DNA of 22,417 nucleotides from a virus (taxonomy: Duplodnaviria > Heunggongvirae > Uroviricota > Caudoviricetes): the IMG/VR virus record IMGVR_UViG_2609459831_000017. One strand, given 5' to 3'. Positions within the stretch are counted from its first letter, which is position 1; every line of letters begins with the position of its first letter. The translations under genes and the position numbers were made by a program. The notes under the pieces were generated by a model, which was given only the letters and a program-made list of their open reading frames with translations, ran no database searches and was not told the origin of the DNA. Positions 1,887 through 21,554 of this stretch are shown piece by piece.

Positions 1887-2000
1887 ATGAACAGCATACT
1901 GATAATCACTTCTCTCCTTATCATATTCAGCATTTTTAGTCATGCCCTAATAAAATTAGGGATTGGCATATCCAATAACCCAGACAAAACCGATGTATAA
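1887..2000 (+). CDS. candidate small hydrophobic protein (37 aa, [37 protein letters not shown])
   Basis: ATG at 1887 preceded by GAGG at 1879-1882, TAA at 1998-2000. One predicted transmembrane helix plus a polar tail. Below the ORF-track cutoff; translated by hand. Confidence 0.3.
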
Positions 2001-2068
2001 GTCAACATATCCTGAATCAGACATACAATATCGCAATGAAAATCAATAATATTTTAAGGAATATCTTC

Positions 2069-2302
2069 ATGAAATCAAAAGACACCCTAAAGTGGTTCCC
2101 TGCGCAGCTTCCTGAAGTAAGAATTATCCTATGGGATGCTGTAGTGGAAGTAGCAAAACAGGGAAGACCTATCAATACCAGAACATTGCTTGATTACATT
2201 GAAGGAAACATAAAGAAAAAATCATGGCTGGATAACAAAGAATTATTACAAACAGCGATATCAGTTCTTAAAGACAACCAAAATTTAAATGGTAAAATGT
2301 AA
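2069..2302 (+). CDS. ydfK: YdfK/YnaE-family prophage protein (cold-shock-associated, function unknown)
   Basis: 77-aa product from ATG 2069 (MKSKDTLKWFPAQLPEV...) with AAGGA 9 nt upstream. Matches recalled K-12 YdfK/YnaE; the track ORF starts 11 codons earlier at 2036. Confidence 0.8.
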   Translation: MKSKDTLKWFPAQLPEVRIILWDAVVEVAKQGRPINTRTLLDYIEGNIKKKSWLDNKELLQTAISVLKDNQNLNGKM

Positions 2303-2618
2303 TATAATAAACTTACTTTTTTATCATTTTTCCACTTTAACAACATTTTGCTCCACTTTTCCACGACCAAACAACTTAAAATCTGGTTAAAATAACACGA
2401 AACACTATTCTTCTTCCTTGAGTCCGCCCGGAACTCGAAAAACAAACCGAGTTAAAGCCATTTTTCACAAAATCGATTTTGGGTCTCACCAAAATTACGG
2501 GGTTGCATACGCATTCGTTTATTTTCGAACGTGTACATACAAATATGCACAAAAATAATCAAAATTATTTTCTGCGATGCATTATGATATGAACACCAAT
2601 TTCGTATAGAGTCTCACT

Positions 2619-3209
2619 ATGTCTCGAATTTTTGCTTACTGTCGGATATCAACGCTGGATCAGACCACCGAAAATCAACGCCGGGAAATCGAAAGTGCAG
2701 GTTTTAAAATCAAACCTCAGCAAATAATCGAAGAACACATTAGCGGCTCAGCAGCAACCAGTGAGCGTCCTAGTTTTAACCGGTTGCTTGCTCGCCTGAA
2801 ATGTGGTGATCAATTGATTGTGACAAAACTGGATCGCCTTGGTTGTAATGCAATGGATATCAGGAAAACAGTGGAACAACTGACCGAAACAGGTATCAGA
2901 GTGCATTGCTTAGCATTGGGGGGCATTGACTTGACCAGTCCAACAGGAAAAATGATGATGCAAGTAATTTCAGCAGTTGCTGAATTTGAACGAGACCTTT
3001 TACTTGAACGCACTCATTCCGGGATAGTAAGAGCCCGCGGCGCAGGGAAACGTTTTGGTCGACCACCTGTGTTAAATGAAGAACAGAAACAGGTGGTATT
3101 CGAACGAATTAAGTCAGGTGTAAGTATAAGTGCCATTGCCCGGGAATTCAAAACCTCGCGGCAAACCATTTTAAGAGCCAAAGCAAAACTTCAGACACCT
3201 GACATATAA
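2619..3209 (+). CDS. pinQ: serine recombinase, DNA invertase (Pin/Gin/Hin family)
   Basis: 196 aa. N-terminal resolvase motif with catalytic Ser in YCRISTLDQ and a C-terminal helix-turn-helix; close match to recalled PinQ/PinE/Gin. Confidence 0.9.
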
Positions 3210-3306
3210 AAAATAATCTCGGTGTGAGATGCTTTACGTCTTCCAAGCCCCCTTCCTTGCCGTAAATGGAAAGATACATCTAATTAAAGAATTTATATGT
3301 TTTACC

Positions 3307-3882
3307 CTACGGCAGTGCTGGCCATTCAATATCCTGTGCAGTTGACGTATCAACACGGTTCAGCAATACCCGATACTTTTTCCATGCTTCCAGCAACGAG
3401 ATTTCTTCCTCCGTTGCAATTTCCAGATCTGCAGCATCCTGAAGCGGCGCAATATGCTCACTGGCTACCTGCATCAGGTTGTTTTTTGTTTCTTCCGCCT
3501 CCCGGATCCGGAACAGTTTTTCTGCTTCCGTATCCTTCACCCAGGCTGTGCCGTTCCACTTCTGAAACTCCCCTTCCGGCGATAACCAGGTAACATTTTT
3601 CGGTAACGGACCGAGTTCAGAAATAAATAACGCGTCGCCGGAAGCCACGTCATAAACCGTTTTACCCCGATGATCTTCAACGAGATGCCACGATGACTCA
3701 TCACTGTTGAAAACAGCCACGAAGCCAGCCGGAATATCTGGCGGTGCAATATCGGTACTGTTTGCTGGCAGACCTGTATGAGGCGGAATATATGCATCAC
3801 CTTCACCAATAAATTCATTAGTTCCGGCCAGCAGATTATAAATTGTTATGGTCCGTGGTTGTTCACTCATTCTGAATGCCAT
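3307..3882 (-). CDS. tfaQ: tail fiber assembly protein
   Basis: 191 aa; matches recalled TfaQ/lambda Tfa. Its start overlaps the stf stop (TAATG). Confidence 0.85.
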
Positions 3883-6800
3883 TATGCAAGCCTCACAATA
3901 TAGTTAAATGCGATGTTTTTGACGGTGTTTTCCGCGTTACCAGCAGCGTTAACGGTGATGGTGTGTCCATGTGAGCCAATCGCAACGGAGTGCGTATGAG
4001 CACCAATACCGACAGTATGTGCGTGTGCACCTGCGCTTGCAGCAGTACCCGATACAGAGTGCGTATGAGCGCCTGCAGAAGAAGTGTTAACACTGTATTT
4101 AGAATAATCAGGTGATCCACTTCCCGGAGCACCACTGGAACCACCTGAAACAAATGTCATCGAATGGGTATGTGCACCGGCTGAAGCAGCCGTACCGCTA
4201 ACACTATGGGTATGTGCACCAGTGTTATTCGTGGATTTAGTGCCGTAATCAAACGATGATGTGGTTTTCGTCCCCAAATCCGTACTGGATGCGCTGGCGC
4301 TGTGGGTGTGCGATTTAATGCCGTCCTGTTCCTGAGACAATACGGCACGACCACTGGCGGGCTTGCCCTTAATCGTCCAGCCACGCATATCAGGAATAAC
4401 GCCTGACGGATAAGCCACTGCAAGTTTCGGGTATGCAGATTTGTCAAAAGTCTGCCCCTGCATCAGGGCATAGCCAGACGGAACGGTATCTGATGGCCAC
4501 GGGATTGGTGCGCCGACTGGGTAGCTTTCTGGTGGAAGATTTTTCGAGGTATAAACTTCTGCCCAGTCATCCTCAAAACCATAACCGTCTCTTGAAGAAC
4601 GGTAGAACAGACCACCATTTCTGTAATGCGCCTTCATCTGCAAGGTCCGGCAACTTCCGACTCCGGTATAGAAGTTAACCAGAATATAGCTGTCGCCAGA
4701 GCGGGTGACATTGTAAGCACCTGATTCGGCATTCCAGGGAACGCCACCATCCGCATCGGCATATGTATCCGTTGCCCTTCTGGCAAAAGCAGCCACATGC
4801 GCGGCGGTTAAAGTAATATCTCTGGAACCATCAAACTCAACACCAGAAACCAGTCTTGGCGTTTGCAGCTTTGTTGCTGTTAATGCATTACCGTTCAGAC
4901 TTGCGGACAGTTTGGTTCCAATAACCAGTTCGCCGGTTGCGTTATAAATAGCAAACGGTCTTAATGTATTCCAGCCACCATAAACATCACCTTGATTGGT
5001 AAGCAGCAGGTAAGTTTTAGCGCCATCATTACGCCATAATGCACCATACTCCCCACCTATCATTCGAATCTGATTACCACCACGCGCTACAATTTCGTCT
5101 GTGGCAAAAAGTTTTTTGCACGACAAATTATCGTTAACGATTAACGAATGAGACTCATAAAAACCACGCCCACTCTTAAAATCAAGGATAACGTCCGCCG
5201 CGATACATTCAGTCGCTGGATTTGTTGCCCCAAACTTATAGGTCGTATCATTAACAACGAGATCAGCACCAGGTGCGGATATTGACAGGCCATCTTCGAT
5301 AAACGCAAAAACAGGGAAAGCAGCGCCATCAACATAGAACACAGAGCGCAAATCATCGCCCTTATTACTCATCATTATTGAGTGGATGGCTCGTTCATTG
5401 TTTTGATATTGCCAGAACATTCCATAAGCATAACGCCCCCTGTCAGTCCAGCCACCAGGCATAACAAATCCGTTAAACTCGCAGTTATTCATCGGATCGC
5501 CTGCGGTTCGCGTTGCCGTGGTGATAATGACCCTTGATGCCAGTTCGCTTACTGAGCCAGCAGAACGCATAACAACAACAGGGTAATATTTTCCAGATGT
5601 TGCACCTGCAGGAGCGTTAACCCGCACATAACGCATACCACGCTTATCAGCAAAGTCTGTTTTACTGACCGCGTTAATGTTGTTCAGGAAGCGTCCCTTA
5701 TCGGGTATATCAGTGCCGTTCTGGTCTTTCTGCAGACGTTTCTCTGCATTGTCATAGGCTGATTTTACTGCCTTTGGCGTTGCCGCCAGCGTTTCAGACG
5801 TACTGTTGGTCGCACTGCTGAGCTGTACTATCCCCTTTTTCGTCGTGCTCGCATCCTCAAGCGCCACGGCGGATGCAATATCCTCTGCCCGTTTTGCTGC
5901 TGTCTCGGCGCGCGTTGCCGCGGATTCCGCCGTACTTTTGCTCTGAGCTGCCGCCGTCGCACTGCCAGCTGCCTCTGTCGCCTTCGTGGATGCCGTCGTG
6001 GCGCTGCCCTTCGCTGCTGACGCCTGTCTGGTCGCCTCATCTTTTGAAGCAGACGCCGATGATGCCGATGACGCCGCCGAACTGGCTGACGATGCGGCAG
6101 CCGTTTTTGAGGATTCTGCGCTGGTTTCCGACGCTTTCGCGTTCGTTTCGGATGTCTTCGCTGCGGAAGCTGACCTCGCTGCTACCGTGGCCTGTTCAGT
6201 GGCTTCGCCAGCCTTCGTTGTGGCTGTTGAAGCGGATGATGCGGCGCTTTCTGCCGACTTTCCGGCAGCGGTGGCACTGGCTGAGGCCTGCCCGGCATTT
6301 GTTGACGCGGCGCTGGCAGATGAGGCAGCCGCTGTTTTTGAGTCTGCTGCTGCGGAGGCACTCTGTCCCGCTGCCGTCTCAGAAGACTTTGCGTTCGTCT
6401 CGGACGTTTTTGCCGCCTTCGCGGAAGTTCCTGCCGCTGTTGCCGAGGAGGCTGCACGACTGGCGCTCGAGGCTGCGCTCGTTTCTGATGATTTTGCCGC
6501 CTCTTTTGAAGCCGACGCATCCCTGGCTGAGGTGGCAGCTTCTGACGCTTTCGTGGTCGCGGTGGATGCAGAAGTGGCGGCTGATTGTTCTGACGCTGCC
6601 GCATTCGTTTCTGACGTTTTCGCCGCACCGGCACTGGTAGCCGCCGCGCTTTTTGAGGACTCTGCAGCGGCAGCACTTTTTGAGGCTTCAGTGGCCTTTG
6701 TTGATGCCGTTCCTGCGCTGGAAGACGCTGACTGAGCCGACGACGCGGCCTGTCCGGCTGACGTGCTGGCTGCACGTGCTGAATCTGCAGCATCAGTCGC

Positions 6801-7232
6801 ACGGGTTGCCGCCTCACTGGCAGATGTGCTGGCATCACTGGCTGACTTCTTTGCGGCTGCCGTGTTCTGTGCCACCACGGACGCGTTACGCGCCACCTCT
6901 TCCACCATCAGTTCAAAACGACGCAGTGCCTCCGGACGGGCATCATCCTCCGTCATGGCACCGAGAAAATCATTCAGCGTACCGGGTTGAGAATCTTCAT
7001 ACACGGTGATGGTCCCGGCATGTGACGGCGGGAATCCCTCCACCAACAGAATAACGCTGTACTGACCGTACTCAACGTCCATGCTGTAACGCCCGGCTTC
7101 ATCCGGATTTTCTGAGGCCAGCGTGTTCACCACCACAGTGGTACTGTTACGTTTTGCTTTCAGCTGGATTGTGCAGTTCTGTACCGGTTTTCCTGTGCCG
7201 TCTTTCAGTACACCTGAAATCTTTACTGCCAT
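3882..7232 (-). CDS. stfQ: side tail fiber protein, full length
   Basis: 1116 aa from ATG at 7230-7232 ([12 protein letters not shown]...) with GGGGTGA Shine-Dalgarno; the track ORF uses an upstream GTG at 7238. Conserved N-terminal baseplate-attachment region, long Ala/Ser/Thr-rich repeat block, and C-terminal His-rich GAHTHS repeats typical of lambda Stf/StfR. Confidence 0.85.
5885..6875 (-). repeat. imperfect tandem low-complexity coding repeats (Ala/Ser/Thr-rich) inside stf
   Basis: Reiterated motifs ([18 protein letters not shown]) in the Stf product. The GC-rich repeat DNA produces long artefactual ORFs in other frames on both strands of the track. Confidence 0.6.
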
Positions 7233-7234
7233 AT

Positions 7235-7381
7235 TCACCCCACAAAAAAGCCCGCCTGAACCGGCGGGCTGTCATAACACTGTGTTACCTGGCTAATGGC
7301 CATTGCGGCGGCACCGGGCACCGCCGTTTTGCTGATACGGCTGAGGTTTTCAACGGCCTGCTCAAGACCTTTTATGGCCAT
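7235..7381 (-). pseudogene. remnant of lambda tail gene Z (first ~29 codons only)
   Basis: Minus-strand ATG at 7379-7381, 12 nt downstream of the FII stop, translates MAIKGLEQAVENLSRISKTAVPGAAAMAI, matching the recalled lambda gpZ N-terminus, then diverges into unrelated sequence and stops at 7235-7237. Confidence 0.6.
7243..7270 (-). terminator. predicted intrinsic terminator immediately upstream of the stf ribosome-binding site
   Basis: 8-bp GC-rich stem (7249-7256 pairing 7263-7270) with a 6-nt loop, followed on the minus strand by TTTTTTG. Confidence 0.45.
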
Positions 7382-7392
7382 ACATCCCCCTT

Positions 7393-7746
7393 TCAGCGGC
7401 GACGGTTAACGGCAGGCGGTACGCCCCGTCCAAGCCAGAGATGACAACTTCCGCCATCATCCGGCGAAACCCGATCTACCCAGAAATTTTCCTCACCGAT
7501 GGTCAGCGTGTCTCCACGCCGCAGCTGCCGCACCTCATCAGTCCGGACAAACAGGGACGGGCTGGAGCCTTCAACGCGCACGCCCTGTCCGGCATAGCTG
7601 ATATTTTCAGGGTCATCAAAAACACCACGTATCACAGCACCGGACTGCTCACCGGATGTCATGGTGGCTGACGTTCCCATGTACCCGCGTATCGTTTCAT
7701 CGGCGCGGGCAATGGCAGCATCGAACAGGTTATCGAAATCAGCCAC
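7393..7746 (-). CDS. FII: head-tail joining protein FII
   Basis: 117 aa (MADFDNLFDAAIARADETIRGYMG...VNRRR), near-identical to recalled lambda gpFII. Confidence 0.9.
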   Translation of the reverse strand: MADFDNLFDAAIARADETIRGYMGTSATMTSGEQSGAVIRGVFDDPENISYAGQGVRVEGSSPSLFVRTDEVRQLRRGDTLTIGEENFWVDRVSPDDGGSCHLWLGRGVPPAVNRRR

Positions 7747-7757
7747 AGCGCCTCCCG

Positions 7758-8156
7758 TTATTGCATTCTGGCCAGGCCGCGCGCTGTCATTTCAGCTGAC
7801 ACACCGGCAGAGACACGAAACGCCGTTCCCGGCAGCACAAATGCCACAGGTTCATCCCGCGTGGCGTGAAGTGCATCAGTATGCAGCGTCACCAGTGCCA
7901 CGACCGTGACCAGTTCAGACGTATCCAGAATCACGGTATCCGGCTGCGCTGATCCCACCTCATTTTCATGTCCGGTCAGCACATTTTCCCGGCTGAGAGG
8001 GGTGTCCTGACCGGCAGTTTCATCCGTGTCATCAAGCTCCTCTTCCAGCTCTGCCACACGGAGCGCCAGTTCTTCTTTCGTCCCCGTCAGGCTGACATCA
8101 CGGTTCAGTTGTTCACCCAGCGAGCGGAGACGGGCAATCAGTTCATCTTTCGTCAT
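7758..8156 (-). CDS. FI: DNA packaging protein FI
   Basis: 132 aa from ATG at 8154-8156 (MTKDELIARLRSLGEQLN...), matching recalled lambda gpFI; the track ORF extends 13 codons upstream to a GTG. Confidence 0.85.
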   Translation of the reverse strand: MTKDELIARLRSLGEQLNRDVSLTGTKEELALRVAELEEELDDTDETAGQDTPLSRENVLTGHENEVGSAQPDTVILDTSELVTVVALVTLHTDALHATRDEPVAFVLPGTAFRVSAGVSAEMTARGLARMQ

Positions 8157-8197
8157 GGACTCCTCCACAGAGAGAAAATGGCCCCGAAGGGCCATGA

Positions 8198-8674
8198 TTA
8201 CGCCAGTTGAACGGCCACGAACTCATCAGGATCAGCCAGCAGCATCAGCGGTGCTGACTGAATCATGGTGAACTCTCGCGCCGGATCGCCGGATGTCTTC
8301 CAGTTTTTCGGATAACGGGGAGACGCATTAATACCCTCACTCAATGCATCCGCATCCTGAATACAGCCATAGGTGCGCAGACCGCGTGCATGAGTGTTAC
8401 CCAGCACCATCGTGTTGTCCGGCAGGAAGTTCTTTTTGACGCCGTTTTCCACGTACTGTCCGGAATACACGACGATGGCCACATCGCCATACATCCCCTT
8501 ATAGGACACCGCTTTACCCAGGTCTTTCACCGCTGTCTCCAGCTCGGAATGAGAGCCACGACGGGTATCCAGCTTCTCCCTGACGGCTTTGAAGGAACGG
8601 AACAGCGCCCAGCCTTTCGGATCGAACACGATGATATTCACCACACCGCTGGCGTTCAGCGCGTAGGCTTCGAT
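8198..8674 (-). pseudogene. C-terminal fragment of major capsid protein E (about 158 codons), no native start
   Basis: Translation IEAYALNASGVVNIIVFDPKGWALFRSF...VAVQLA matches the C-terminal portion of recalled lambda gpE. The frame continues upstream past 8674 into unrelated codons, offset by one from the A' frame. Confidence 0.8.
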
Positions 8675-9906
8675 ACGCGCATTTCGTAGCGGTCCAGCTG
8701 GGAGTCGATACCGGCGGTCAGGTAAGCCACACGGTCAGGAACGGGCGCTGAATAATGCTCTTTCCGCTCTGCCATCACTTCAGCATCCGGACGTTCACCG
8801 ATTTTCGCTTCCCACGTCTCACCGAGCGTGGTGTTCACGAAGGTTTTACGTTTTCCCGTATCCCCTTTCGTCTTCATCCAGTCTTTGACAATCTGCACCC
8901 AGGTGGTGAACGGACTGTACGCCGTCCAGATGTGAAAGGTCACACTGTCAGGCGGTTCAATCTCTTCACCGGATGACGAAAACCAGAGAATGCCATCACG
9001 GGTCCAGATCCCGGTCTTTTCGCAGATATAACGGGCATCAGTAAAGTCCAGCTCCTGCTGACGGATGACGCAGGCGTTATGCTCACAGAGATAAAACACG
9101 CTGGAGGGGTCATCCGGCATCCATTTGAGGCCAAACGGCGTCTCTTTGTCGCCAAATTTAAGGTACTGCTCCTTCCCGCAGTGCGGGCAGGCAACATGAA
9201 AACGCATAAAATGCGGGGATTCACTGGCTGCACGCTCAATCTGGCAGGTGCCTCTCACTTTGGGCGTGGAGCCACGGATGGACTTTGGCCAGACCGAGCC
9301 TTCAATACGTTTGTCGCCAAGGAACGTCGGAGAGCCTTCCTGTTCAATATCCTCATCAAAGGCAGCAAGTTCATCATAACCCGCCACATCCACCGACTTT
9401 TCACGGTAGTTTTTTGCCGCTTTACCGCCCAGGCACCAGAAGCCACGACCATTGGTGAAACGCTTCATAGTGAGCGTGTTATCCCGGTGCTTTTTGCCAT
9501 ACCACGGAGCCAGCGCCAGCAGCGACGGAATATCGCGGATGGTCGGCTCAACGTGGGTTTTCATAAAGTTCTCGGCATCACCATCCGTCGGCAACCAGAT
9601 AAGTGTGTTGCGCTGCTTATGCTCTATAAAGTAGGCATAAACACCCAGCAGCATTTTGGAATAACCGACACGGGCAGACTTCACCACATTCACCTCACGG
9701 ATGTAGTCGCTGCCCATCGCATTCATGATGGCCCGCTGAAAGGGCAGTGTTTCCCAGCGCCCTTCCTGGTATGCGGATTCTTTCGGGAGATAGTAATTAG
9801 CATCCGCCCATTCAACGGCGGTCTGTGGCTCCGGCCTGAACAGTGAGCGAAGCCCGGCGCGGACAAAATGCCGCAGCCTGTTAACCTGACTGTTCGATAT
9901 ATTCAC
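8656..9906 (-). pseudogene. terminase large subunit A, truncated after ~409 codons
   Basis: MNISNSQVNRLRHFVRAGL...DRYEMRV matches the N-terminal two-thirds of recalled lambda gpA (641 aa), then 5 unrelated codons (SKPTR) and TGA at 8656-8658. The C-terminal region is absent. Confidence 0.85.
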
Positions 9907-10426
9907 TCAGCAACCCCGGTATCAGTTCATCCAGCGCGGCTGCTTTGTTCATGGCTTTGATGATATCCCGTTTCAGGAAATCAACATGTCGGTTTTCCAG
10001 TTCCGGAAAACGCCGCTGCACCGACAGGGGGATCCCGTCGAGAATACTGGCAATTTCACCTGCGATCCGCGACAGCACGAAAGTACAGAATGCGGTTTCC
10101 ACCACTTCAGCGGAGTCTCTGGCATTTTTCAGCTCCTGTGCGTCGGCCTGCGCACGCGTAAGTCGATGGCGTTCGTACTCAATAGTCCCTGGCTGGAGAT
10201 CTGTCTCGCTGGCCCGCCGCAGTTCTTCAACTTCCCGGCGCAGCTTTTCGTTCTCAATTTCAGCATCCCTTTCGGCATACCATCTTATAACGGCGGCAGA
10301 GTCATAAAGCACCTCATTACCCTTGCCACCGCCTCGCAGAACGGGCATTCCCTGTTCCTGCCAGTTCTGAATGGTACGGATACTCGCACCGAAAATGTCA
10401 GCCAGCTGCTTTTTGTTGACTTCCAT
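9881..10426 (-). CDS. nohQ: terminase small subunit (Nu1 homolog)
   Basis: 181 aa (MEVNKKQLADIFGASIRTIQNWQEQGMPVLRGGGKGNEVLYD...), near-identical to recalled lambda Nu1, including the winged-helix DNA-binding N-terminus. Its 3' end overlaps the A' start. Confidence 0.9.
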   Translation of the reverse strand: MEVNKKQLADIFGASIRTIQNWQEQGMPVLRGGGKGNEVLYDSAAVIRWYAERDAEIENEKLRREVEELRRASETDLQPGTIEYERHRLTRAQADAQELKNARDSAEVVETAFCTFVLSRIAGEIASILDGIPLSVQRRFPELENRHVDFLKRDIIKAMNKAAALDELIPGLLSEYIEQSG

Positions 10427-10603
10427 TGTTCATTCCACGGCCAAAAACAGAGAAAGGAAACGACAGAGGCCCAAAAGTTCGTTTTCAGCACCTGTCGTTT
10501 CCTTTCTTTTTAGGGGGTATTTTAAATAAAAACATTAAGTTACGACGAAGAAGAACGGAAACGCCTTAAACCGGAAAATTTTCATAAATAGCGAAAACCC
10601 GCG
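10427..10603 (-). promoter_or_regulatory. cosB-like terminase binding region
   Basis: Lies between cosN and the Nu1 start. Perfect 16-bp inverted repeat AGAAAGGAAACGACAG (10441-10456) and CTGTCGTTTCCTTTCT (10482-10497), resembling lambda R elements. Confidence 0.6.
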
Positions 10604-10615
10604 AGGTCGCCGCCC
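10604..10615. other. cosN cohesive-end site
   Basis: Plus strand AGGTCGCCGCCC is the reverse complement of GGGCGGCGACCT, the recalled 12-nt lambda cohesive end, positioned ~190 nt upstream of Nu1 as in lambda. Confidence 0.75.
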
Positions 10616-10814
10616 CGTAACCTGTCGGATCACCGGAAAGGACCCGTAAAGTGATAATGATTATCATCTACATATCACAACGTGCGTGGAGGCCATCAAA
10701 CCACGTCAAATAATCAATTATGACGCAGGTATCGTATTAATTGATCTGCATCAACTTAACGTAAAAACAACTTCAGACAATACAAATCAGCGACACTGAA
10801 TACGGGGCAACCTC

Positions 10815-11048
10815 ATGTCAACGAAGAACAGAACCCGCAGAACAACAACCCGCAACATCCGCTTTCCTAACCAAATGATTGAACAAATTAACATCGCTCT
10901 TGAGCAAAAAGGGTCCGGGAATTTCTCAGCCTGGGTCATTGAAGCCTGCCGCCGGAGACTGTGCTCAGAAAAAAGAGTTTCTTCTGAAGCAAACAAAGAA
11001 AAGAGTGACATTACTGAATTGCTCAGAAAACAGGTCAGACCAGATTGA
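10815..11048 (+). CDS. ynfO: small prophage protein, YnfO/YlcI (DUF3950)-like
   Basis: 77 aa (MSTKNRTRRTTTRNIRFPNQMIEQINIALEQKGSGNFSAWVIEACRRRL...) next to cos, as recalled for K-12 Qin. Confidence 0.7.
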   Translation: MSTKNRTRRTTTRNIRFPNQMIEQINIALEQKGSGNFSAWVIEACRRRLCSEKRVSSEANKEKSDITELLRKQVRPD

Positions 11049-11105
11049 AGCAATTTAGATAATCGTGCAGACTACGCCCCCTCATATCACATGGACGGTT
11101 TATCT

Positions 11106-11516
11106 ATGGATCAGGTAGTCATTTTTAAACAAATATTTGATAAAGTTCGAAACGATTTAAACTATCAATGGTTTTATTCTGAGCTAAAACGTCACAATGT
11201 CTCACATTACATTTACTATTTAGCCACAGAGAATGTTCATATTGTATTAAAAAATGATAATACAGTGTTATTAAAGGGCCTAAAAAACATTGTGTCTGTC
11301 AAATTTTCAAAGGATAGGCATCTTATAGAAACGACCTCTAATAAGCTGAAATCCAGAGAGATCACATTTCAGGAATACAGAAGAAACCTTGCTAAAGCAG
11401 GAGTTTTTCGGTGGGTTACAAATATCCACGAACAAAAAAGATATTACTATACCTTTGATAATTCATTACTATTTACTGAAAGCATCCAGAAAACTACACA
11501 GATCTTACCACGCTAA
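11106..11516 (+). CDS. ydfO: YdfO-like protein (DUF1398)
   Basis: 136 aa from ATG 11106 ([28 protein letters not shown]...); the track ORF starts 5 codons earlier at 11091. Matches recalled K-12 YdfO. Confidence 0.75.
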
Positions 11517-11667
11517 ACCATAACGTCCGGCTTCTCTCACTCCTGAGCCGGACTGCATTGGTTTAATAAAAACCATCAACAATTGTGATTTAGATATTCG
11601 GAACCATTCAAATATAACAAAACCCCGTAAAAACGAGGTTTATGGATAAATTTTATTATTGAATACA

Positions 11668-11841
11668 TCAGATTAAATTAATCTTGACATCATAGCTTTC
11701 AAGACCCGTCATTTTTTCCCGTGCGGTAAACTGAATACTGGTAACTTCTTTCCCGGTCTTTTTCTTAAGTTCAATAATTTTTTTTGTTATATATTCAGAA
11801 ATATCTGCTTCTGCTTTTGTTTTTAAGTTTTCAATATTCAT
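11668..11841 (-). CDS. gnsB: GnsB-like small protein
   Basis: 57 aa (MNIENLKTKAEADISEYITKKIIELKKKTGKEVTSIQFTAREKMTGLESYDVKINLI) with AGAGGA 4-5 nt upstream; an in-frame ATG lies one codon earlier. Below the track cutoff; translated by hand. Confidence 0.7.
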   Translation of the reverse strand: MNIENLKTKAEADISEYITKKIIELKKKTGKEVTSIQFTAREKMTGLESYDVKINLI

Positions 11842-12012
11842 CATTTCCTCTTTTAGTCTGTTATGACTTTCCAGTTACACAGTAAGTCGATTATATGGTG
11901 CAAACGTGTAAAAGATAAGATGAAACATCGCAATAATCAACATACGATAGTCTAAATTTTACACAAACAGACAAAGAGAATTTTCCTGAATTATCAATGC
12001 AATAGCATCAAA

Positions 12013-12243
12013 TCAACTCAAGAGCCTTATTGCTGCTTCCAGAATTTCTTCTGAAGTAACATGTCGATCCGCGGCTACATAAATGACTTTATGATCTCCG
12101 GTCAGAGATGGAAACCCTGCGGCCATTACAGTAAGGTGTGTTTTTTCGCCATTTGGATATTCACGCATGATGGTGTTAACTCCAGTCATCGCTGGCACTA
12201 CCACTGCTGGTTCAGAGTTAAAAAAAACTATGATTTTTTTCAT
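12013..12243 (-). CDS. ynfN: small prophage protein, tentatively YnfN-like
   Basis: 76 aa from ATG at 12241-12243 (MKKIIVFFNSEPAVVVPAMTGVN...); the track ORF extends to a TTG at 12285. Assignment rests on position between gnsB and cspI; the sequence itself was not recognised. Confidence 0.45.
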   Translation of the reverse strand: MKKIIVFFNSEPAVVVPAMTGVNTIMREYPNGEKTHLTVMAAGFPSLTGDHKVIYVAADRHVTSEEILEAAIRLLS

Positions 12244-12284
12244 GATGTTACCGTAGTATGTGAGTATCCATCGAATAGACACCA

Positions 12285-12308
12285 AGCAAAAAAGCTCCCG
12301 AAGGAGCC
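12285..12308 (-). terminator. predicted intrinsic terminator with UUCG tetraloop
   Basis: Minus-strand GGCUCC-UUCG-GGAGCU stem-loop followed by UUUUUUGCUU, about 200 nt downstream of the cspI stop. Confidence 0.45.
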
Positions 12309-12514
12309 TTCATTTTCACTTTTTTAAATCCAACGACAGACGGCTGGCATTTAAGTATTGTGAAATATTATCAAATGTAATCATCATTGATTTACAAAAG
12401 ATACATTTTGCCCCGAAAGGATTCATGTCAGAAACATCAAAAGATGATGTTCTATACTGGGAACCATGACAACACGGGCATCTAAAGTGAATATGGTTTG
12501 TAATATTGTCTACC

Positions 12515-12727
12515 TCAAAGCGCCACTACATGAACAGCGGCAGGACCTTTAGGTCCGTTCTCAATACCAAATTCAACTTCCTGATTCTCAGTTAATGTTT
12601 TGAAATCGTTGCTCTGAATTGCTGAGAAATGGACAAACACATCTTTGCTGCCATCTTTCGGCGTGATGAAACCAAAACCTTTTTCAGGGTTAAACCATTT
12701 CACTAAACCAGTCATTTTGTTAGACAT
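12515..12727 (-). CDS. cspI: cold-shock protein, CspA family
   Basis: 70 aa ([38 protein letters not shown]...) with RNP1/RNP2 motifs (KGFGFI, VFVHF). Confidence 0.9.
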
Positions 12728-13089
12728 AATTATTACCTTTTGAAGAAATTAGCCCTTGGGCAGAATGGTCCGAAAAAAAATATCAGAGAGAAAAACCAAC
12801 AAGGAAATCTCAAGAGGTACAAATAATAAAATTATAACAATGACTGCTTCAGATAAATTTGTAACAAACCAGAACACCATTAACGCATGATTAACCACCC
12901 ATAGCAAGGATTACTTTTGTAAAGAAAAACACAGCAATGAAAGAATAGCTTTATTTATTAATAAAACGTGTCATTCTGATTAAGACCTTTTATCTTACCC
13001 TTAAGATTTCAGGAATTTTGGCTCATGGAAGAGTCCTTTTTATTTAAATTTTACATTCCGCGATGTAAATGTTCCGATTTAATATTACC

Positions 13090-14113
<1,024 letters not shown>

Positions 14114-14117
<4 letters not shown>

Positions 14118-14425
14118 AGATATTTATGATGAGGACGCTCGTGCTTATTGGCAGGATTTTCAATCTTAAAGGAGTACTGATGCTGCAGATAAGACTCAAC
14201 TTTTTCTGACAATTTTTCTGCTACTTCCAGGAAGACTTGCCGGACGCTCCTTCTGGCTGCTGCCTCATAAAACTCCAGCGCAGCTCCTTCAACACGGTCC
14301 ATGGCGACATCCAGGTCAAAAATTTCACCGTCAAAGCGTTCTTTGTCCTGTAAGGCTACAGTTACCGTAACTTTATTCTCAAAATTACGGACTCCTTTCA
14401 CAACCAGTTCATAGTCTTGAGTCAT
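14114..14425 (-). CDS. ydfR: YdfR-like protein (DUF1327), inserted between holin and endolysin
   Basis: 103 aa (MTQDYELVVKGVRNFENKVTVTVALQDKERFDGEIFD...), same length as recalled K-12 YdfR. Confidence 0.7.
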
Positions 14426-14429
14426 TGGA

Positions 14430-14645
14430 TTACTCTCCTCTCGCAGCCTTACGCCTGTCTTCTTTAATCTTGAAATAAAGATTTGTCAGATACGTCAGCA
14501 GGCCAAAAACCAGGCTACCCAGCACACCGATTGCAGCCCACTGTGACGGAGTTACTTTATCGAGTAACTGCAATGCCCAGAAACCAGCATTACCCGCCGA
14601 TGTGCCATAGGCAACACCTGTTGTTAACTTATCCATTGATTTCAT
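14430..14645 (-). CDS. essQ: class II holin (pinholin, S21-like) with dual start MKSMDK
   Basis: 71 aa from ATG at 14643-14645 ([53 protein letters not shown]...): two transmembrane domains and a charged C-terminus. The track ORF extends 25 codons upstream. Confidence 0.85.
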
Positions 14646-14864
14646 ATCCTCACCCCGATGTACACGGATGGTGCAATATGTTTGAAAAGATCGGAGTCTA
14701 CGGGGTAGTTTTGACAGCACACGTTGTTCTCAACGGCGCTAAAAAAACATACACATTAAAAATGTGGGTAATTATTTTGAAAGAAAGTCATATATAAAAT
14801 AATAATACGAGAAATGTTTTCATATTTAGTGTACTGTATACGGCCATTTATACAGGAAAAGCCT

Positions 14865-15035
14865 ATGTCAGAACGTAAAAACTCAAAATCACGCCGTAAT
14901 TATCTCGTTAAATGTTCCTGCCCAAACTGCACCCAAGAGTCAGAACACAGTTTTTCAAGAGTACAAAAAGGTGCCCTTTTGATCTGCCCTCATTGCAACA
15001 AAGTATTCCAGACAAATCTTAAAGCTGTAGCCTGA
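14865..15035 (+). CDS. small zinc-ribbon-like protein (56 aa)
   Basis: ATG at 14865 with AGGA 7 nt upstream. Cys clusters C-x-C-x2-C (CSCPNC) and C-x2-C (CPHC) in MSERKNSKSRRNYLVKCSCPNCTQESEHSFSRVQKGALLICPHCNKVFQTNLKAVA. Opposite strand to the late genes. Confidence 0.5.
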   Translation: MSERKNSKSRRNYLVKCSCPNCTQESEHSFSRVQKGALLICPHCNKVFQTNLKAVA

Positions 15036-15087
15036 TTGATTTTATTAGTAACAAGTATTTTTTATATTTTAATAATATATTTAAAGC

Positions 15088-15117
15088 AGATAATAAAAAA
15101 CCCGCCTGAGCGGGTTT
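15088..15117 (-). terminator. predicted intrinsic terminator (mainly minus strand)
   Basis: AAACCCGC-CTGA-GCGGGTTT hairpin; on the minus strand it is followed by TTTTTTATTATC. Confidence 0.5.
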
Positions 15118-15398
15118 GAGATTGTGGTGCTTTTTGTGGGAGTCATCCACTTACGCACTTTGTTTTGCCATGCCAGCAGTTAGCTTCTGCTGTAAAACTA
15201 TTCATGCAGCAAACCTGCACTTCACCACAATGGTTAGCATACTTTTCCTGATTAAGATTTTGCCAAATATGCTAGCCATTGTTTCATGTATTGGACCTCC
15301 TTACTTTTTATTAAAGAGATCCAATATTCACTACTCTGTCCGTATCTCTACTCAGGCATCAGCCTTCTTCGTTATCGTATACAGACGAGCGATGAATT

Positions 15399-15614
15399 TT
15401 AATCAGTAATGATGACATTTGCTGCTGCAGGACCTTTAGCACCACTCTCTATAGAGAAGGTAACCTTTTGACCTTCAAATAAGGTTCGATAATTATCATT
15501 CTGAATCGCAGAAAAATGCACAAACACATCTTTACTACCATCAACAGGAGAAATAAAGCCGAAACCTTTATCAGCGTTAAACCATTTTACTAAACCAGTC
15601 ATTTTATTTGACAT
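15399..15614 (-). CDS. cspB: cold-shock protein, CspA family
   Basis: 71 aa ([53 protein letters not shown]...). Confidence 0.9.
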
Positions 15615-15914
15615 TCTACATTCCTTAACTTGAGCCTTTCGGCATAAATGGTTTGCATAACAGAAACGACTTCGTACTTAATTGGAGAGACTCAAAGAAG
15701 GAATAAGTGAATAACACCTGAAATGAGAACTGCTTTAGTAAACTACTTCGTATATCGTCTGTTCTTCAAACCGACGCAATCATTAACGCATAGTTGAACA
15801 TATGAAGCAATGTTTATTTTAGACATCCAGCCATCTTCAACCCCATCAAAAAACTATAGCTTTCTTCAGGAACGTGTGTATAGTGCGCCAAGTTATCAGT
15901 ATTAAGGAATTTTT

Positions 15915-16127
15915 TTGTCCCGTAAAATGACAGGAATTGTCAAAACCTTTGACGGCAAAAGCGGCAAGGGTCTTATCACCCCATCCGATGGTCGTATCGA
16001 TGTCCAGCTTCATGTTTCAGCGCTCAATCTCCGCGATGCAGAAGAAATTACCACCGGATTACGCGTGGAATTTTGCCGGATAAATGGTCTGCGTGGCCCT
16101 TCAGCTGCCAATGTTTACCTTTCATGA
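15915..16127 (+). CDS. cspF: cold-shock-domain protein, divergent CspA-family paralog
   Basis: 70 aa ([39 protein letters not shown]...). TTG start at 15915 with AGGA 7 nt upstream; the first ATG is 4 codons in. Confidence 0.85.
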
Positions 16128-16181
16128 GCTATATTAAAGCTTTAATTTCAGGCCCCATCGGATCACACATGGAGAGTTTTT

Positions 16182-16271
16182 ATGAATAACCCCGTCTGTC
16201 TTGATGACTGGTTGATTGGCTTTAAAAGCTTATGCTGTACTTTGGCCGTAATAGCTCTGCTAATAATATAA
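16182..16271 (+). CDS. candidate small hydrophobic peptide (29 aa, [29 protein letters not shown])
   Basis: ATG at 16182 with GGAGAG 5 nt upstream, 55 nt after the cspF stop and before the terminator at 16419-16452. Translated by hand; could be fortuitous. Confidence 0.2.
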
Positions 16272-16418
16272 TAAGCAGACTCATTGTGTTTAGGGACATT
16301 GTACTGGAAGAAAACATTTTAAACATCAGGCAAATAACCAAGTCACCAGCTAAATAATAAGTTAACAGACATGAGTCCCGGGATGAGATTCAACATTACC
16401 ATTGCCCCATTTAAAGCA

Positions 16419-16452
16419 CAAAACCCGCTCATCAGCGGGTTTTCTACTTTTT
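16419..16452 (+). terminator. predicted intrinsic terminator downstream of cspF
   Basis: AAACCCGCT-CATC-AGCGGGTTT hairpin followed by TCTACTTTTTC. Confidence 0.55.
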
Positions 16453-16548
16453 CTTAACGTCGGGTATACAAAGCCCATCGTTGAAAAAATTTTATCCATA
16501 TTTTTTGAAAAATGCAAACATCATGTCGCCATCTTCAGCAAAAATCAT

Positions 16549-17301
16549 TTATCTCGTCACCTTCCTCAATTGCGCTTCCGCGTATGCTTCTTCCTGCCAG
16601 CACTTTGTTACCAGTTTACCAATGACGTCCGCATACCCCTTATACCACTGATAATCGGTCAGGTCTGGTACCAGCTTCTGGACATGACGTCGTGCCAGCG
16701 TGGTCGGTAAACGACTAAACCGGTTTCCATTACAACGCCCACAAATCTTATATACCGGTACGCCATGAAACCGGGTTCTTTTTTCATCCAGAACAATCCC
16801 TTTACCCTTACACCCTCTGCACGCTGTGCTGGCTTCGCCCTTACCATGGCAATGCTGACATAGTTCCTTCACCCATTCTTCCTTGATTACAGATTCCCCG
16901 CGTCTGTAGTGTTTCACCACTTCGCGCAATACATTATAAAATCCCGTACCTGAACAATGCTCACAGCGAGCCTTACTTGCCGCAGACCTGGAGTAATCAG
17001 CAAAGGCAAAACTCACGAGGTAAGGAATAATCTGTAACCGGATTTCTTCACTCAATTTGTTCAATGTCGGGTTATCCAGTGCCATCGCGTAATTTAGCAG
17101 GCCTTCAATCGCAAACTGAGGGTCCTGAACACCAACTTTTGCCAGAAATAAGGCCAACCCAAGTGGTGCTTTCGACTGCACCATCCCCTGCGCTGCCATT
17201 ACATCCGTAATTGTTAAACAACCGGTGCCTGTCGCTGGAGCGTCATCGCTCAATTTTGGAGATTTTGGGGAGTAATATTTTGGTAAGGCTTCAAGGTTCA
17301 T
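16549..17301 (-). CDS. quuQ: late-gene antiterminator Q (phage 21/82 type)
   Basis: 250 aa from ATG at 17299-17301 (MNLEALPKYYSPKSPKL...) with GGAG upstream. Cys/His-rich zinc-binding region (CEHCSGTG, CQHCHGKG, CRGCKGKG, CGRCNG). The track ORF extends 10 codons upstream. Confidence 0.85.
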   Translation of the reverse strand: MNLEALPKYYSPKSPKLSDDAPATGTGCLTITDVMAAQGMVQSKAPLGLALFLAKVGVQDPQFAIEGLLNYAMALDNPTLNKLSEEIRLQIIPYLVSFAFADYSRSAASKARCEHCSGTGFYNVLREVVKHYRRGESVIKEEWVKELCQHCHGKGEASTACRGCKGKGIVLDEKRTRFHGVPVYKICGRCNGNRFSRLPTTLARRHVQKLVPDLTDYQWYKGYADVIGKLVTKCWQEEAYAEAQLRKVTR

Positions 17302-17314
17302 GCTCGTTCTCCAC

Positions 17315-18364
17315 TTACGCCAGTACGCCAATTGCCAGCGCGCGATCGATAAAACGAAATATCAGCTCCAGTTGGGAGCCATACTTATCTTCAAATGCCA
17401 CTGTATCCGTATGCAGCTCGTTGTGATGCTTTCTGCACAAAGGCAACACAAAGAGATCATGTGCTTTTGTTCCCATTCCGCCCTGCCCGTGACCAATCAG
17501 ATGATGCGGATCGTCGGCTGGCATACCGCAGCAAGCACACGGCTGTGTCTTAACCCAACGTGTGTATTTCTCCTTAACCCAGCGGCGACGTTTAGGCAGC
17601 TTCATGAAAGATTCCGGAGACTCTGGATCAACGGTGATGCTTACCACCGTCTTTTCCTGTGGTGATTTTTGTTGCTGGTGGGCGTAAGGCAACGGTGCAA
17701 GATTTTTTGTGCGTTGTTTCAATATGCTGGTGGCGGTCTGCTCTCCCGGTACGATGTCGCTTTCGCGGTACACCGAGCAGATTTTTTCCGCTGGTAATCC
17801 CAGCGAACGACGCGATACAGCCTCAGGTAGTGCATCCACCACCTGATTGCAGACCGCCCACCAGGATAATTCAGCCAAAGATAATTCCCGCTCCTGCGTA
17901 CCGCTTATTGCGTGACGGATGACGTCAATCACCCATGCTGTCAGATTTTGTTGAGCAAGCAGCTCCAGTGATTCCGATGTCTGGTCACGCAGTTGGTTGT
18001 CGCAGTGCCAGCACAACACCATTGCGCCGGTACCATAACGGTGAATGACTGTTTCAGTGTGATGGTAATCGCCATTAGGCCACTGGCAGGATGTAACATG
18101 ACGTAATAGCCAGTCGGACAATGCGCCAACGCCGCCAGCAGCACGAATCACCCGTTCGTTACTAAAAAACGGCAGCAATGTTTTGTCTTCCGCCAGCGGC
18201 TGGCGAACGGCAGGAACGACTCCGGATGGCAGATTACGCATGCTTTTTGGTTCCGGTTCCACCAGCACTCGAGGATTATGAAATATCTGTATGGATTCAC
18301 GGCCCGGCTTAAGGACCACCAGCCCAAGCTCAGGCACCAGAACAGGTCTAAGTAATACCCGCAC
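17315..18364 (-). CDS. ydfU: YdfU-like protein (DUF968) with C-terminal HNH-like Cys/His motif
   Basis: 349 aa from GTG at 18362-18364, 1 nt below the rem stop; an in-frame extension reaches 18403 (362 aa). C-terminal motif QPCACCGMPADDPHHLIGHGQGG...CRKHHNELH. Ends 14 nt upstream of the Q start. Confidence 0.7.
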   Translation of the reverse strand: MRVLLRPVLVPELGLVVLKPGRESIQIFHNPRVLVEPEPKSMRNLPSGVVPAVRQPLAEDKTLLPFFSNERVIRAAGGVGALSDWLLRHVTSCQWPNGDYHHTETVIHRYGTGAMVLCWHCDNQLRDQTSESLELLAQQNLTAWVIDVIRHAISGTQERELSLAELSWWAVCNQVVDALPEAVSRRSLGLPAEKICSVYRESDIVPGEQTATSILKQRTKNLAPLPYAHQQQKSPQEKTVVSITVDPESPESFMKLPKRRRWVKEKYTRWVKTQPCACCGMPADDPHHLIGHGQGGMGTKAHDLFVLPLCRKHHNELHTDTVAFEDKYGSQLELIFRFIDRALAIGVLA

Positions 18365-18365
18365 G

Positions 18366-18644
18366 TTACCTCCAGATCCGTTGCTGGAAAGTGCGGGACG
18401 CACGTGGTGGGCGTTCGGAATAAGGCAGCCTGACAGAGATTATCCAGTGCCGATAGTCGAGACTGAGAGCTTTCTTAACCTCGAACCCGCGCCTGCGGTA
18501 AGAATGAATCAGCCATTCGGCCTGTTCTGCAGTGCATGGAGGGTGCTGGAACCATTCAGACTTGAATGCGTGAGAATACCGCCCGTGCGTGCAGGCAAGA
18601 ACGGGCGAATTATCAGAATTGTAATATTTTGCGTTGCGTGCCAT
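18366..18644 (-). CDS. rem: Rem-like small protein, function unknown
   Basis: 92 aa (MARNAKYYNSDNSPVLACTHGRYSHAFKSEWFQHPPCTAEQAEWLIHSYRRRGFEVKK...) with ATG at 18642-18644, immediately upstream of ydfU. Confidence 0.6.
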   Translation of the reverse strand: MARNAKYYNSDNSPVLACTHGRYSHAFKSEWFQHPPCTAEQAEWLIHSYRRRGFEVKKALSLDYRHWIISVRLPYSERPPRASRTFQQRIWR

Positions 18645-18710
18645 CGGTTTTCTCCGGTGGCACGGTGTTACTCAGCGGGAGTTCAGCCCCGCGCAAGATT
18701 GTAGATGAGT

Positions 18711-18962
18711 TTATTCTCCTGAAAAAGCAGAAAAGCCAGCTTTTATTCCGATCTCTTTCAATGCCTGTAATGAAGTGACAAACTCACCTTCGCGCAAGAT
18801 AAATCCGTCCGTGACCCGAGCATCCACAAAATTAATTAACGCAGCCCCATTCTTTCGCAAACACATAATGCGGTAATGACTAACAAGATTTCCATTTTCA
18901 ACGCACACAGCATAGAGGCCATCTTCACAAAAAATTTTACGCAGTTCTTCGATGTTCATCAT
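18711..18962 (-). CDS. hypothetical protein (83 aa), not recognised
   Basis: ATG at 18960-18962 with AAGGA 5 nt upstream. Candidate sigma-70 promoter (TTGAAG, 18 nt, TAGAAT) in 18963-19077, just downstream of the relBE-hokD terminator. Product MMNIEELRKIFCEDGLYAVCVENGNLVSHYRIMCLRKNGAALINFVDARVTDGFILREGEF... Confidence 0.55.
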   Translation of the reverse strand: MMNIEELRKIFCEDGLYAVCVENGNLVSHYRIMCLRKNGAALINFVDARVTDGFILREGEFVTSLQALKEIGIKAGFSAFSGE

Positions 18963-19077
18963 CAGAATCCTTCCGGATAATTAGCTCTCCCCTTTAAGGG
19001 ACCATCCCTCTTATCCCTGCGCTCTACTTAAGTATTTTTGATTCTATTCCGGCACCGTCCAGAACTTCAAACGCGTT

Positions 19078-19110
19078 GAAAATAAAAACAAAAACCCGCC
19101 GAAGCGGGTT
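19078..19110 (-). terminator. predicted intrinsic terminator of the relB-relE-hokD operon
   Basis: Minus-strand hairpin AACCCGC-UUCG-GCGGGUU followed by UUUUGUUUUUAUUUUC. Confidence 0.55.
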
Positions 19111-19178
19111 AAGTGCGGGTGCGTTGAGGATGCCTGCCACATCAGAGGTGGCGAGGGATTTCTCCCCCGCCGGGTCTC

Positions 19179-19334
19179 TTACTCCTCAGGTTCGTAAGCT
19201 GTGAAGACAGCGACCTCCGTCTGGCCGGTTCGGATTCGTACCTCGCAGAGGTCTTTCCTCGTTACCAGTGCCGTCACTATGACGGTTAAACAGATGACGA
19301 TCAGGGCGATTAACATCGCCTTTTGCTGCTTCAT
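19179..19334 (-). CDS. hokD: Hok-family membrane toxin
   Basis: 51 aa (MKQQKAMLIALIVICLTVIVTALVTRKDLCEVRIRTGQTEVAVFTAYEPEE), matching recalled HokD/RelF. Below the track cutoff; translated by hand. Confidence 0.85.
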   Translation of the reverse strand: MKQQKAMLIALIVICLTVIVTALVTRKDLCEVRIRTGQTEVAVFTAYEPEE

Positions 19335-19405
19335 AGCCTGCTTCTCCTGTCAACGCAAAGCAGAAGTGTCACCTTCGGTGCGAAACAGAGATGTCATGCT
19401 TTGGT

Positions 19406-19693
19406 TCAGAGAATGCGTTTGACCGCCTCGCTATATACTTCCGAGCGTTCTCTTTTCCCAACAGAAATCACGAAAACGACAACTTTCTCGTCTATAACCT
19501 GGTATACAAGGCGATAGCCTGAAGACCGGAGCTTAATCTTGTAACAATCAGGCATACCACGGAGCTTGTTTGCTTCAATCCGGGGTGACTCAAGTACTTC
19601 AACCAGCTTCTTTTTCAACTGTTCACGTACCGTCGAGCCCAGCTTTCGCCATTCCTTTAGTGCCCGCTCGTCAAAATCCAGAAAATACGCCAT
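19406..19693 (-). CDS. relE: RelE mRNA interferase toxin
   Basis: 95 aa (MAYFLDFDERALKEWRKLGSTVREQLKKKLVEVLESPRIEANKLRGMPDCYKIKLRSSGYRLVYQVIDEKVVVFVISVGKRERSEVY...), matching recalled K-12 RelE. Confidence 0.95.
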   Translation of the reverse strand: MAYFLDFDERALKEWRKLGSTVREQLKKKLVEVLESPRIEANKLRGMPDCYKIKLRSSGYRLVYQVIDEKVVVFVISVGKRERSEVYSEAVKRIL

Positions 19694-20838: not shown

Positions 20839-21254
20839 ATCAGCCTTTTCTTTAAAGACATATTATCTTTGTATCATTTCTGATAGTTAACATTACAAGA
20901 TATAAGTAATGGACGCACTCCCAATTAGTCTATTTAAATCGCCACGAGTTTAACTGACAACCCATGATCAATTATGAATTGCAACTATTTCTGTAGTCAC
21001 TTTTGTGGGGACAGTCCACAAAACTGCCAACTTCCGCTTCTTGCTCTTAGCGGACATTAGCATAGGCTATTTACCATAACGCCTCATTACGCGCACCGCC
21101 CAGACTGACTCAGCGCGTTTCTGGCATATCCCCGGTAAAACAAGTAACAAACCACCCGAAAATGAACACCAGAAACGCGACTTAAGAATTGATCTTACCC
21201 AGCAATAGTGGACACGCGGCTAAGTGAGTAAACTCTCAGTCAGAGGTGACTCAC

Positions 21255-21554
21255 ATGACAAAAACAGTATCAACCAGTAAAAAACCCCGTAAACAGCATT
21301 CGCCTGAATTTCGCAGTGAAGCCCTGAAGCTTGCTGAACGCATCGGTGTTACTGCCGCAGCCCGTGAACTCAGCCTGTATGAATCACTGCTCTACAACTG
21401 GCGCAGTAAACAGCAAAATCAGCAGACGTCTTCTGAACGTGAACTGGAGATGTCTACCGAGATTGCACGTCTCAAACGCCAGCTGGCAGAACGGGATGAA
21501 GAGCTGGCTATCCTCCAAAAGGCCGCGACATACTTCGCGAAGCGCCTGAAATGA
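21255..21554 (+). CDS. insE: IS3 OrfA (transposase N-terminal, helix-turn-helix)
   Basis: 99 aa ([43 protein letters not shown]...) from ATG 21255; the track ORF uses an upstream GTG at 21246. Confidence 0.9.

Follow-up and report, generated by a model that had tools for sequence, protein, structure and literature searches.

Lambda recombines with homologous remnants of the defective prophages of Escherichia coli K-12, Qin among them, and the nu1 gene of DLP12 works in lambda (PMC3945230). DLP12 is a defective lambdoid prophage of K-12 that, like the locus studied here, holds cos, a Nu1 homologue (nohD) and part of the terminase gene A, but it is another prophage at another locus, with breakpoints that are probably different. 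Its truncated A remnant is presumably the gene named aaaD. In the lambda literature, the N-terminus of gpA, the large terminase subunit, is its Nu1-binding end and the C-terminus its prohead-binding end.

Here we analyse a stretch of 22,417 bases (the window; IMG/VR record IMGVR_UViG_2609459831_000017) in which a Qin allele retains fragments of two lambda-type head genes: A', which has lost the 3' part of A, and 'E, which has lost the 5' part of the major capsid gene E. The genome paper of E. coli 1303, a strain that carries this element, says no more of it than 'prophage 2 without noticeable features' (PMC5422975). A literature search found no paper that describes the A'-'E joint. An earlier reading of the same DNA, made from its letters alone (the sequence-only reading), had proposed an out-of-frame fusion at this place, and its claims are taken up below with the results that bear on them.

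The window is the Qin cryptic prophage

Qin, a cryptic prophage integrated in ydfJ, makes up the window, which differs from the bovine mastitis strain E. coli 1303 by 3 mismatches in 22,417 bases (positions 596, 2132 and 19023). The RefSeq annotation of that strain gives the order ydfJ', ynfT, ydfK, pinQ, tfaQ, a full-length tail-fibre gene, Z', FII, FI, 'E, A', nohA, ynfO, ydfO, gnsB, cspI, lysis genes, cspB/F, ydfT, ydfU, rem, hokD, relBE and flxA, and then IS3. The Qin gene set is present in the 1303 annotation (pinQ, tfaQ, nohA, ydfO, gnsB, cspI/B/F, rrrQ, ydfT, relBE, hokD and flxA). The terminase fragment is labelled there as 'terminase gpA endonuclease subunit, incomplete, missing C-terminus' and the capsid fragment as 'major capsid protein, incomplete, missing N-terminus'. 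The scar is thus already flagged in RefSeq as two incomplete pseudogenes; it is a textbook decay deletion in a known cryptic prophage.

The same element occupies the same ydfJ site in K-12, where its late operon has also been gutted by deletion. The window is collinear with K-12 Qin at 99.2-99.9% identity, and the 11.3 kb from nohA to flxA are 99.93% identical. K-12 Qin differs in lacking window positions of about 4556-9897, with a break that runs from codon 3 of A into stf, and A', E', FI, FII and Z' are gone. By contrast, the window allele retains 5.3 kb beyond K-12 Qin and carries two separate smaller joints, A'-'E and Z'-stf (Table 1). The stfQ gene of K-12 encodes only 320 aa and has a divergent segment with 90% identity over window 4171-4555. 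The K-12 junction was considered as a possible derivative of the window allele; as it breaks at A codon 3 and enters the divergent stf, it is uninformative as to an earlier A'-'E joint in the ancestor of K-12. The K-12-type junction, from which A has been lost, occurs in about 370 complete genomes.

Table 1. Positions of the late-region remnants and neighbouring genes in the window.
Feature	Position	Strand	Remarks
pinQ	2619-3209	+	
tfaQ	3307-3882		downstream of stf
Side tail fibre gene stf, full length	3882-7232	-	1,116-1,118 aa; ATG 7232, or from 7238
Second joint, Z'-stf	7294-7297	-	Z codon 30 (lambda 8064) to lom stop/stf leader (lambda 19589); shared ATTA
FII, intact	7393-7746	-	
FI, intact	7758-8156	-	downstream of 'E
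'E, 3' remnant of major capsid gene E	8198-8674	-	codons 184-341 and stop
A'-'E deletion joint	8673-8675	-	TAT common to lambda A 1942-1944 and lambda E 6683-6685
A', terminase large-subunit gene	8656-9906	-	GTG start; 411 native codons, SKPTR, TGA (8658-8656)
nohA, Nu1-type small terminase subunit, intact	9881-10426	-	overlaps A' start as in lambda
cos region	10516-10615	-	first 100 bases of lambda left end, 1 mismatch

A' and 'E meet at a clean joint

The breakpoint was placed by ungapped comparison of the window with lambda (NC_001416), and the flanks of the Qin prophage of EC102, described below, served as a second reference. On the A side, the window agrees with lambda as far as base 1944 (window 8673) and first departs from it at base 1945 (window 8672). 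On the E side, agreement with lambda starts at base 6683 (window 8675), and base 6682 (window 8676) is the nearest mismatch. Unambiguous A sequence ends at window 8676 and unambiguous E sequence begins at window 8672. The 3-nt TAT overlap that the sequence-only reading had deduced from the codons was recovered in this ungapped comparison, with mismatches directly on both sides of it. The A-side sequence entering the joint is GAAATGCGCGTAT, which continues as GGGGATGG in intact A and as CGAAGCC at the A'-'E joint; the E-side sequence downstream of the joint is CGAAGCCTACGCG.

In lambda coordinates, the joint leads from base 1944, the first base of A codon 412, to base 6686, the third base of E codon 184. 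The missing interval, 1945-6685, takes in all of W, B, C/Nu3 and D, preceded by the 3' third of A and followed by E codons 1-183. Its length is 4,741 bp, and since 4741 mod 3 = 1, the A'/'E fusion is out of frame. The joint contains no filler bases, and no insertion sequence or long repeat was found there or in the EC102 flanks. The nohA-A' flank is 97.7% identical to lambda over 1,768 bases and the E'-FI-FII-Z' flank 97.3% identical over 1,383 bases, both ungapped, so that the resemblance to lambda is not due to chance.

The A'-'E joint is a clean deletion scar, in which the front two-thirds of A is joined out of frame to the back half of E. The A-like and E-like segments had been described as contiguous in lambda coordinates, and indeed both run collinear with lambda until they meet at a single clean joint, where no base is inserted. 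The removal of 3'-A, W, B, C, Nu3, D and 5'-E by a single deletion had also been proposed: the list of lost parts agrees with the lambda coordinates and with the EC102 gene order, and a single event is the most parsimonious account, albeit unproven.

Both head-gene remnants are truncated

The A' product starts with MNISNSQVNRL…, follows lambda gpA through …AGIDSQLDRYEMRV (…DSQLDRYEMRV) and ends with S-K-P-T-R, giving 416 aa; gpA residues 412-641 are missing. The sequence-only reading had followed gpA as far as DRYEMRV, which is correct, and had placed its end at about residue 409, which is not: these seven residues are 405-411, and 411 is the last native one. Its five foreign codons and the stop at 8656-8658 are what the translated minus strand reads.

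In a Pfam domain search that included full-length lambda proteins as controls, A' matched GpA_ATPase (PF05876) over residues 47-285 (model positions 3-237 of 247, E = 5e-51), which is also how far the match extends in lambda gpA. The match to GpA_nuclease (PF20454) covered only model positions 2-95 of 294, positions 96-294 being lost, and the breakpoint falls inside this domain (model position 95 of 294), away from a domain boundary. Because the endonuclease domain and the C-terminal end are incomplete, A' is classed as a truncated pseudogene of the lambda-type gpA family rather than a functional member. The absence of the C-terminal region from the retained fragment had been noted before, and the Pfam result specifies that the loss includes the greater part of the nuclease domain as well as the entire C-terminus.

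The 'E frame begins with ATC at 8674-8672, which is E codon 184, and stays open to a stop at 8200-8198, encoding 158 residues (IEAYALNASGVVNIIVFDPKGW…FVAVQLA) that match positions 183-328 of 329 of the Pfam Phage_cap_E model. This accords with the earlier description of a different frame, from about 8674, encoding the C-terminal ~158 residues of E. The gene is not full length: it lacks codons 1-183, and the joint supplies no start codon for it. The first in-frame start-type codon is GTG 8644, 11 nt past the A' stop, with no obvious Shine-Dalgarno sequence upstream of it. Re-initiation at this codon, which would yield a 148-aa E fragment, was considered unlikely, as no Shine-Dalgarno-like sequence was seen and half a capsid protein was judged unlikely to fold or assemble. 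A programmed frameshift from A' into 'E, the frame of which is -1 relative to A', was also rejected, no slippery heptamer being present in the 18 nt TCG AAG CCT ACG CGC TGA. An open reading frame of 99 aa on the plus strand over the joint (8390-8689) is regarded as spurious; it is antisense to E and A and matches no family.

Compared with lambda, the codon differences in A' are 28 synonymous and 3 non-synonymous; substitutions that occur in the window alone number 16 synonymous and 2 non-synonymous. Mostly synonymous change of this kind is the mark of phages that diverged while still functional, ahead of the deletion. Neither stops nor indels were found in the retained pieces. With no measurable pseudogene decay in the remnants, the scar is young relative to the divergence that preceded the deletion. 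The intact look of the remnants fits a young pseudogene, and would also be compatible with a retained function of A'.

A related Qin allele retains the deleted interval

A Qin prophage without this deletion is found in EC102. It lies at the same ydfJ site, its proteins from cspB to ynfO (left of cos) share accession numbers with those of strain 1303, and its right end, tfaQ-pinQ-ydfK-ynfT-ydfJ', is the same as in the window lineage; the agreement of these accessions and of the right end identifies it as Qin at the same site. It differs in its late region, which is nearly complete and of lambda type and reads nohA, A, W, B, C (frameshifted), D, E, FI, FII, Z, U, V, G, T, H, M, L, K, I, J', 'lom, stf. 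EC102 thus carries A through E in lambda order between both breakpoints. Its breakpoint sequences match the flanks kept in the window and are those of lambda, …GCGCGTAT followed by GGGGATGG on the A side and …GACGATAT followed by CGAAGCC on the E side, so that the TAT overlap holds in a Qin-type relative as well.

EC102 and the window differ at 41 of 1,768 bases in nohA/A' (about 2.3%) and at 24 of 1,383 bases in E'-FI-FII-Z'. Given the difference in the nohA/A allele, EC102 is a sister allele and not the direct parent. Since A' differs by ~2.3% from both EC102 and lambda, the parental sequence across the deleted interval is represented only by relatives. The EC102 prophage is itself defective: besides the frameshift in C (protease/scaffold), a small deletion fuses J' to 'lom (locus L006, 9737-11055 and 20824-24110).

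The joint is inherited on a scaffold that is still decaying

Among 5,426 complete E. coli genomes, two had the exact junction: 1303, isolated from bovine mastitis, and EC26, from bovine milk. The exact 416-aa product that spans it was found on 179 public contigs, and is annotated as a CDS in the original 1303 record (AJF56394.1). In the ten distinct contexts of the A' product that were shown, the Qin/ydfJ locus was found every time (10/10) and tail genes never (0/10). The commonest context is the strain 1303 arrangement. Others show tfaQ close behind A' (L009), an EC26-like stf stump (L010), an insertion after FI (L012), interruptions in nohA and stf (L015) or an FI-stf fusion (L016). In these draft genomes, the scaffold has undergone further, independent steps of decay.

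The window contains a second joint, Z'-stf, through which 11,524 bp of lambda sequence (8065-19588), from Z' through lom, are missing; the first 29-30 codons of Z are kept (window 7286-7381). Among complete genomes, this exact joint was seen in strain 1303 only. A third deletion, in EC26, leads from FI codon 39 into stf with the overlap GAAG, window 8045-8042 being joined to 4635-4632 (L005, 18790-18900). In the genomes and contigs compared, neither the A-E nor the Z-lom deletion was seen alone, save where a later deletion has erased the second. The A'-'E joint is an inherited lineage marker on a scaffold that is still decaying.

Origin of the deletion

The A'-'E joint combines the features of a microhomology deletion: it is clean, without filler and without a long repeat or mobile element at its ends, and has an overlap of a few bases. 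In this lineage, the overlaps at the three joints measure 3 (TAT), 4 (ATTA) and 4 nt (GAAG), with zero filler. At a per-base match probability of 0.25, the chance of an overlap of at least 3 nt is about 0.05 and that of at least 4 nt about 0.016 each, or jointly about 1.3e-5 if the joints are independent. Microhomology use at the A'-'E joint alone is suggestive, and it is mainly the three joints together that argue for it. RecA-dependent homologous recombination would presumably need more than 3 nt of overlap, which points to a RecA-independent pathway.

We propose that the joint is very probably a deletion scar in the Qin late operon, left by microhomology-associated illegitimate deletion during prophage decay. 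A Qin ancestor would have possessed a lambda-type head module, cos-Nu1-A-W-B-C/Nu3-D-E-FI-FII. RecA-independent illegitimate end joining or replication slippage at TAT would then have removed 4,741 bp, from A codon 412 to E codon 183, probably in one event. The out-of-frame joint would end A' five codons later, leaving 416 aa with the ATPase domain intact and two-thirds of the nuclease domain lost, and the remaining 158 codons of E would lack a start signal. Deprived of portal, protease/scaffold, decoration protein, capsid protein and a working terminase, the prophage would be fixed in place. Both remnants are accordingly best regarded as probable non-functional pseudogenes.

The same final joint would also result from successive overlapping deletions, for instance from a smaller one between A codon 519 and E codon 136 that was later enlarged. 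A deletion of this kind is known from the defective lambdoid prophage of W137 (also in OXA-181 and CUPS03), which has independently lost the DNA between A and E and kept A', 'E and FI, with a TA overlap and no filler; as it breaks at A codon 519 and keeps the last 205 codons of E, its retained parts include all those retained in the window. Nested stepwise decay is evident on the Qin scaffold. However, the W137-type element is a different prophage, adjoining avs2 (L003, 6470-6590). At the Qin locus, neither the five junction-bearing genomes nor the 10 contexts shown contained an intermediate, and one event is more parsimonious; we consider the nested route unlikely. An error of assembly or sequencing, or a chimera between two defective prophages, is conceivable because an E. 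coli genome has several lambdoid head modules of nearly the same sequence (the median number of matching places is 2), by which assemblers can be misled. The probability that the joint arose in this way is close to nil: it is identical in independent complete assemblies of 2015 and 2025, its product occurs on 179 contigs from NCBI, ENA and Logan, draft and metagenome assemblies included, and both flanks are contiguous with Qin-specific DNA. The recurrence of the same joint in two independent complete genomes, and in numerous draft and metagenome assemblies, shows that assembly did not create it. W137 also shares the downstream pattern A'-'E-FI-FII'-'stf-tfa, indicating some parallelism in late-gene loss.

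Possible roles of the remnants

The simplest reading of the locus is that of two dead gene fragments. A domesticated A' has to be weighed against it: together with NohA and cos, the fragment could poison the terminase assembly of superinfecting lambdoid phages or act at cos. In keeping with such a role, nohA, cos and the ATPase domain of A' are intact, and A' is identical on 179 contigs and was kept while the DNA downstream decayed repeatedly. Nevertheless, recent common descent explains the identity of A' among its carriers, and its mostly synonymous divergence predates the deletion. Furthermore, K-12 and at least 370 other complete genomes have a Qin without A altogether, and the A' breakpoint lies off any domain boundary, cutting the nuclease domain at 95 of 294. 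Domestication seems extremely improbable on these grounds. A wider version, in which cos-nohA-A' would be retained for function, either as a nuclease-less, prohead-blind gpA fragment that blocks cos cleavage or packaging or through cos and the A'/'E-FI-FII patches as a hotspot of head-gene exchange, we judge very improbable.

If the remnants have any biological role, it would probably be as patches of homology for recombination with incoming lambdoid phages. The Qin remnants are 97-100% identical to live lambdoid phages. Among the roles considered, that of a homology reservoir alone is backed by evidence from elsewhere, because recombination of lambda with such remnants has been shown in K-12.

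The deletion scar explains why this Qin allele cannot form particles. Base-exact coordinates are now available for two decay deletions, or three with EC26, and the window, EC102 and K-12 alleles together trace the stepwise decay of a single prophage at a single locus, with overlaps of 3-4 nt throughout. This may serve as a worked example for prophage domestication, and the joint as a lineage marker for E. coli with this Qin allele. Beyond such bookkeeping its significance is small; it is an ordinary decay scar and opens no new question.

Other features of the window

The essentially intact cos adjoins the intact nohA, a place where the chromosome might in principle be cleaved by a helper lambdoid phage. 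Three Rfam matches in the window exceeded the gathering score: IS009 (220.9 bits; 3341-3539, minus strand), which lies inside tfaQ, and two cspA-type thermoregulator leaders (12488-12873 and 15383-15775, minus strand), upstream of cspI and cspB. The middle of stf is very long, rich in Ala, Ser and Thr, and repetitive, and this region yields several long spurious open reading frames in other frames and on the plus strand (e.g. 5873-6640 and 5986-6735). At the far end, homology to K-12 stops at window 21189; in strain 1303 an IS3-family element sits between flxA and ydfW (window 21190-22417). After ydfW, strain 1303 has a truncated ISNCY transposase, whereas K-12 has ydfX-dicC-dicA-dicB.
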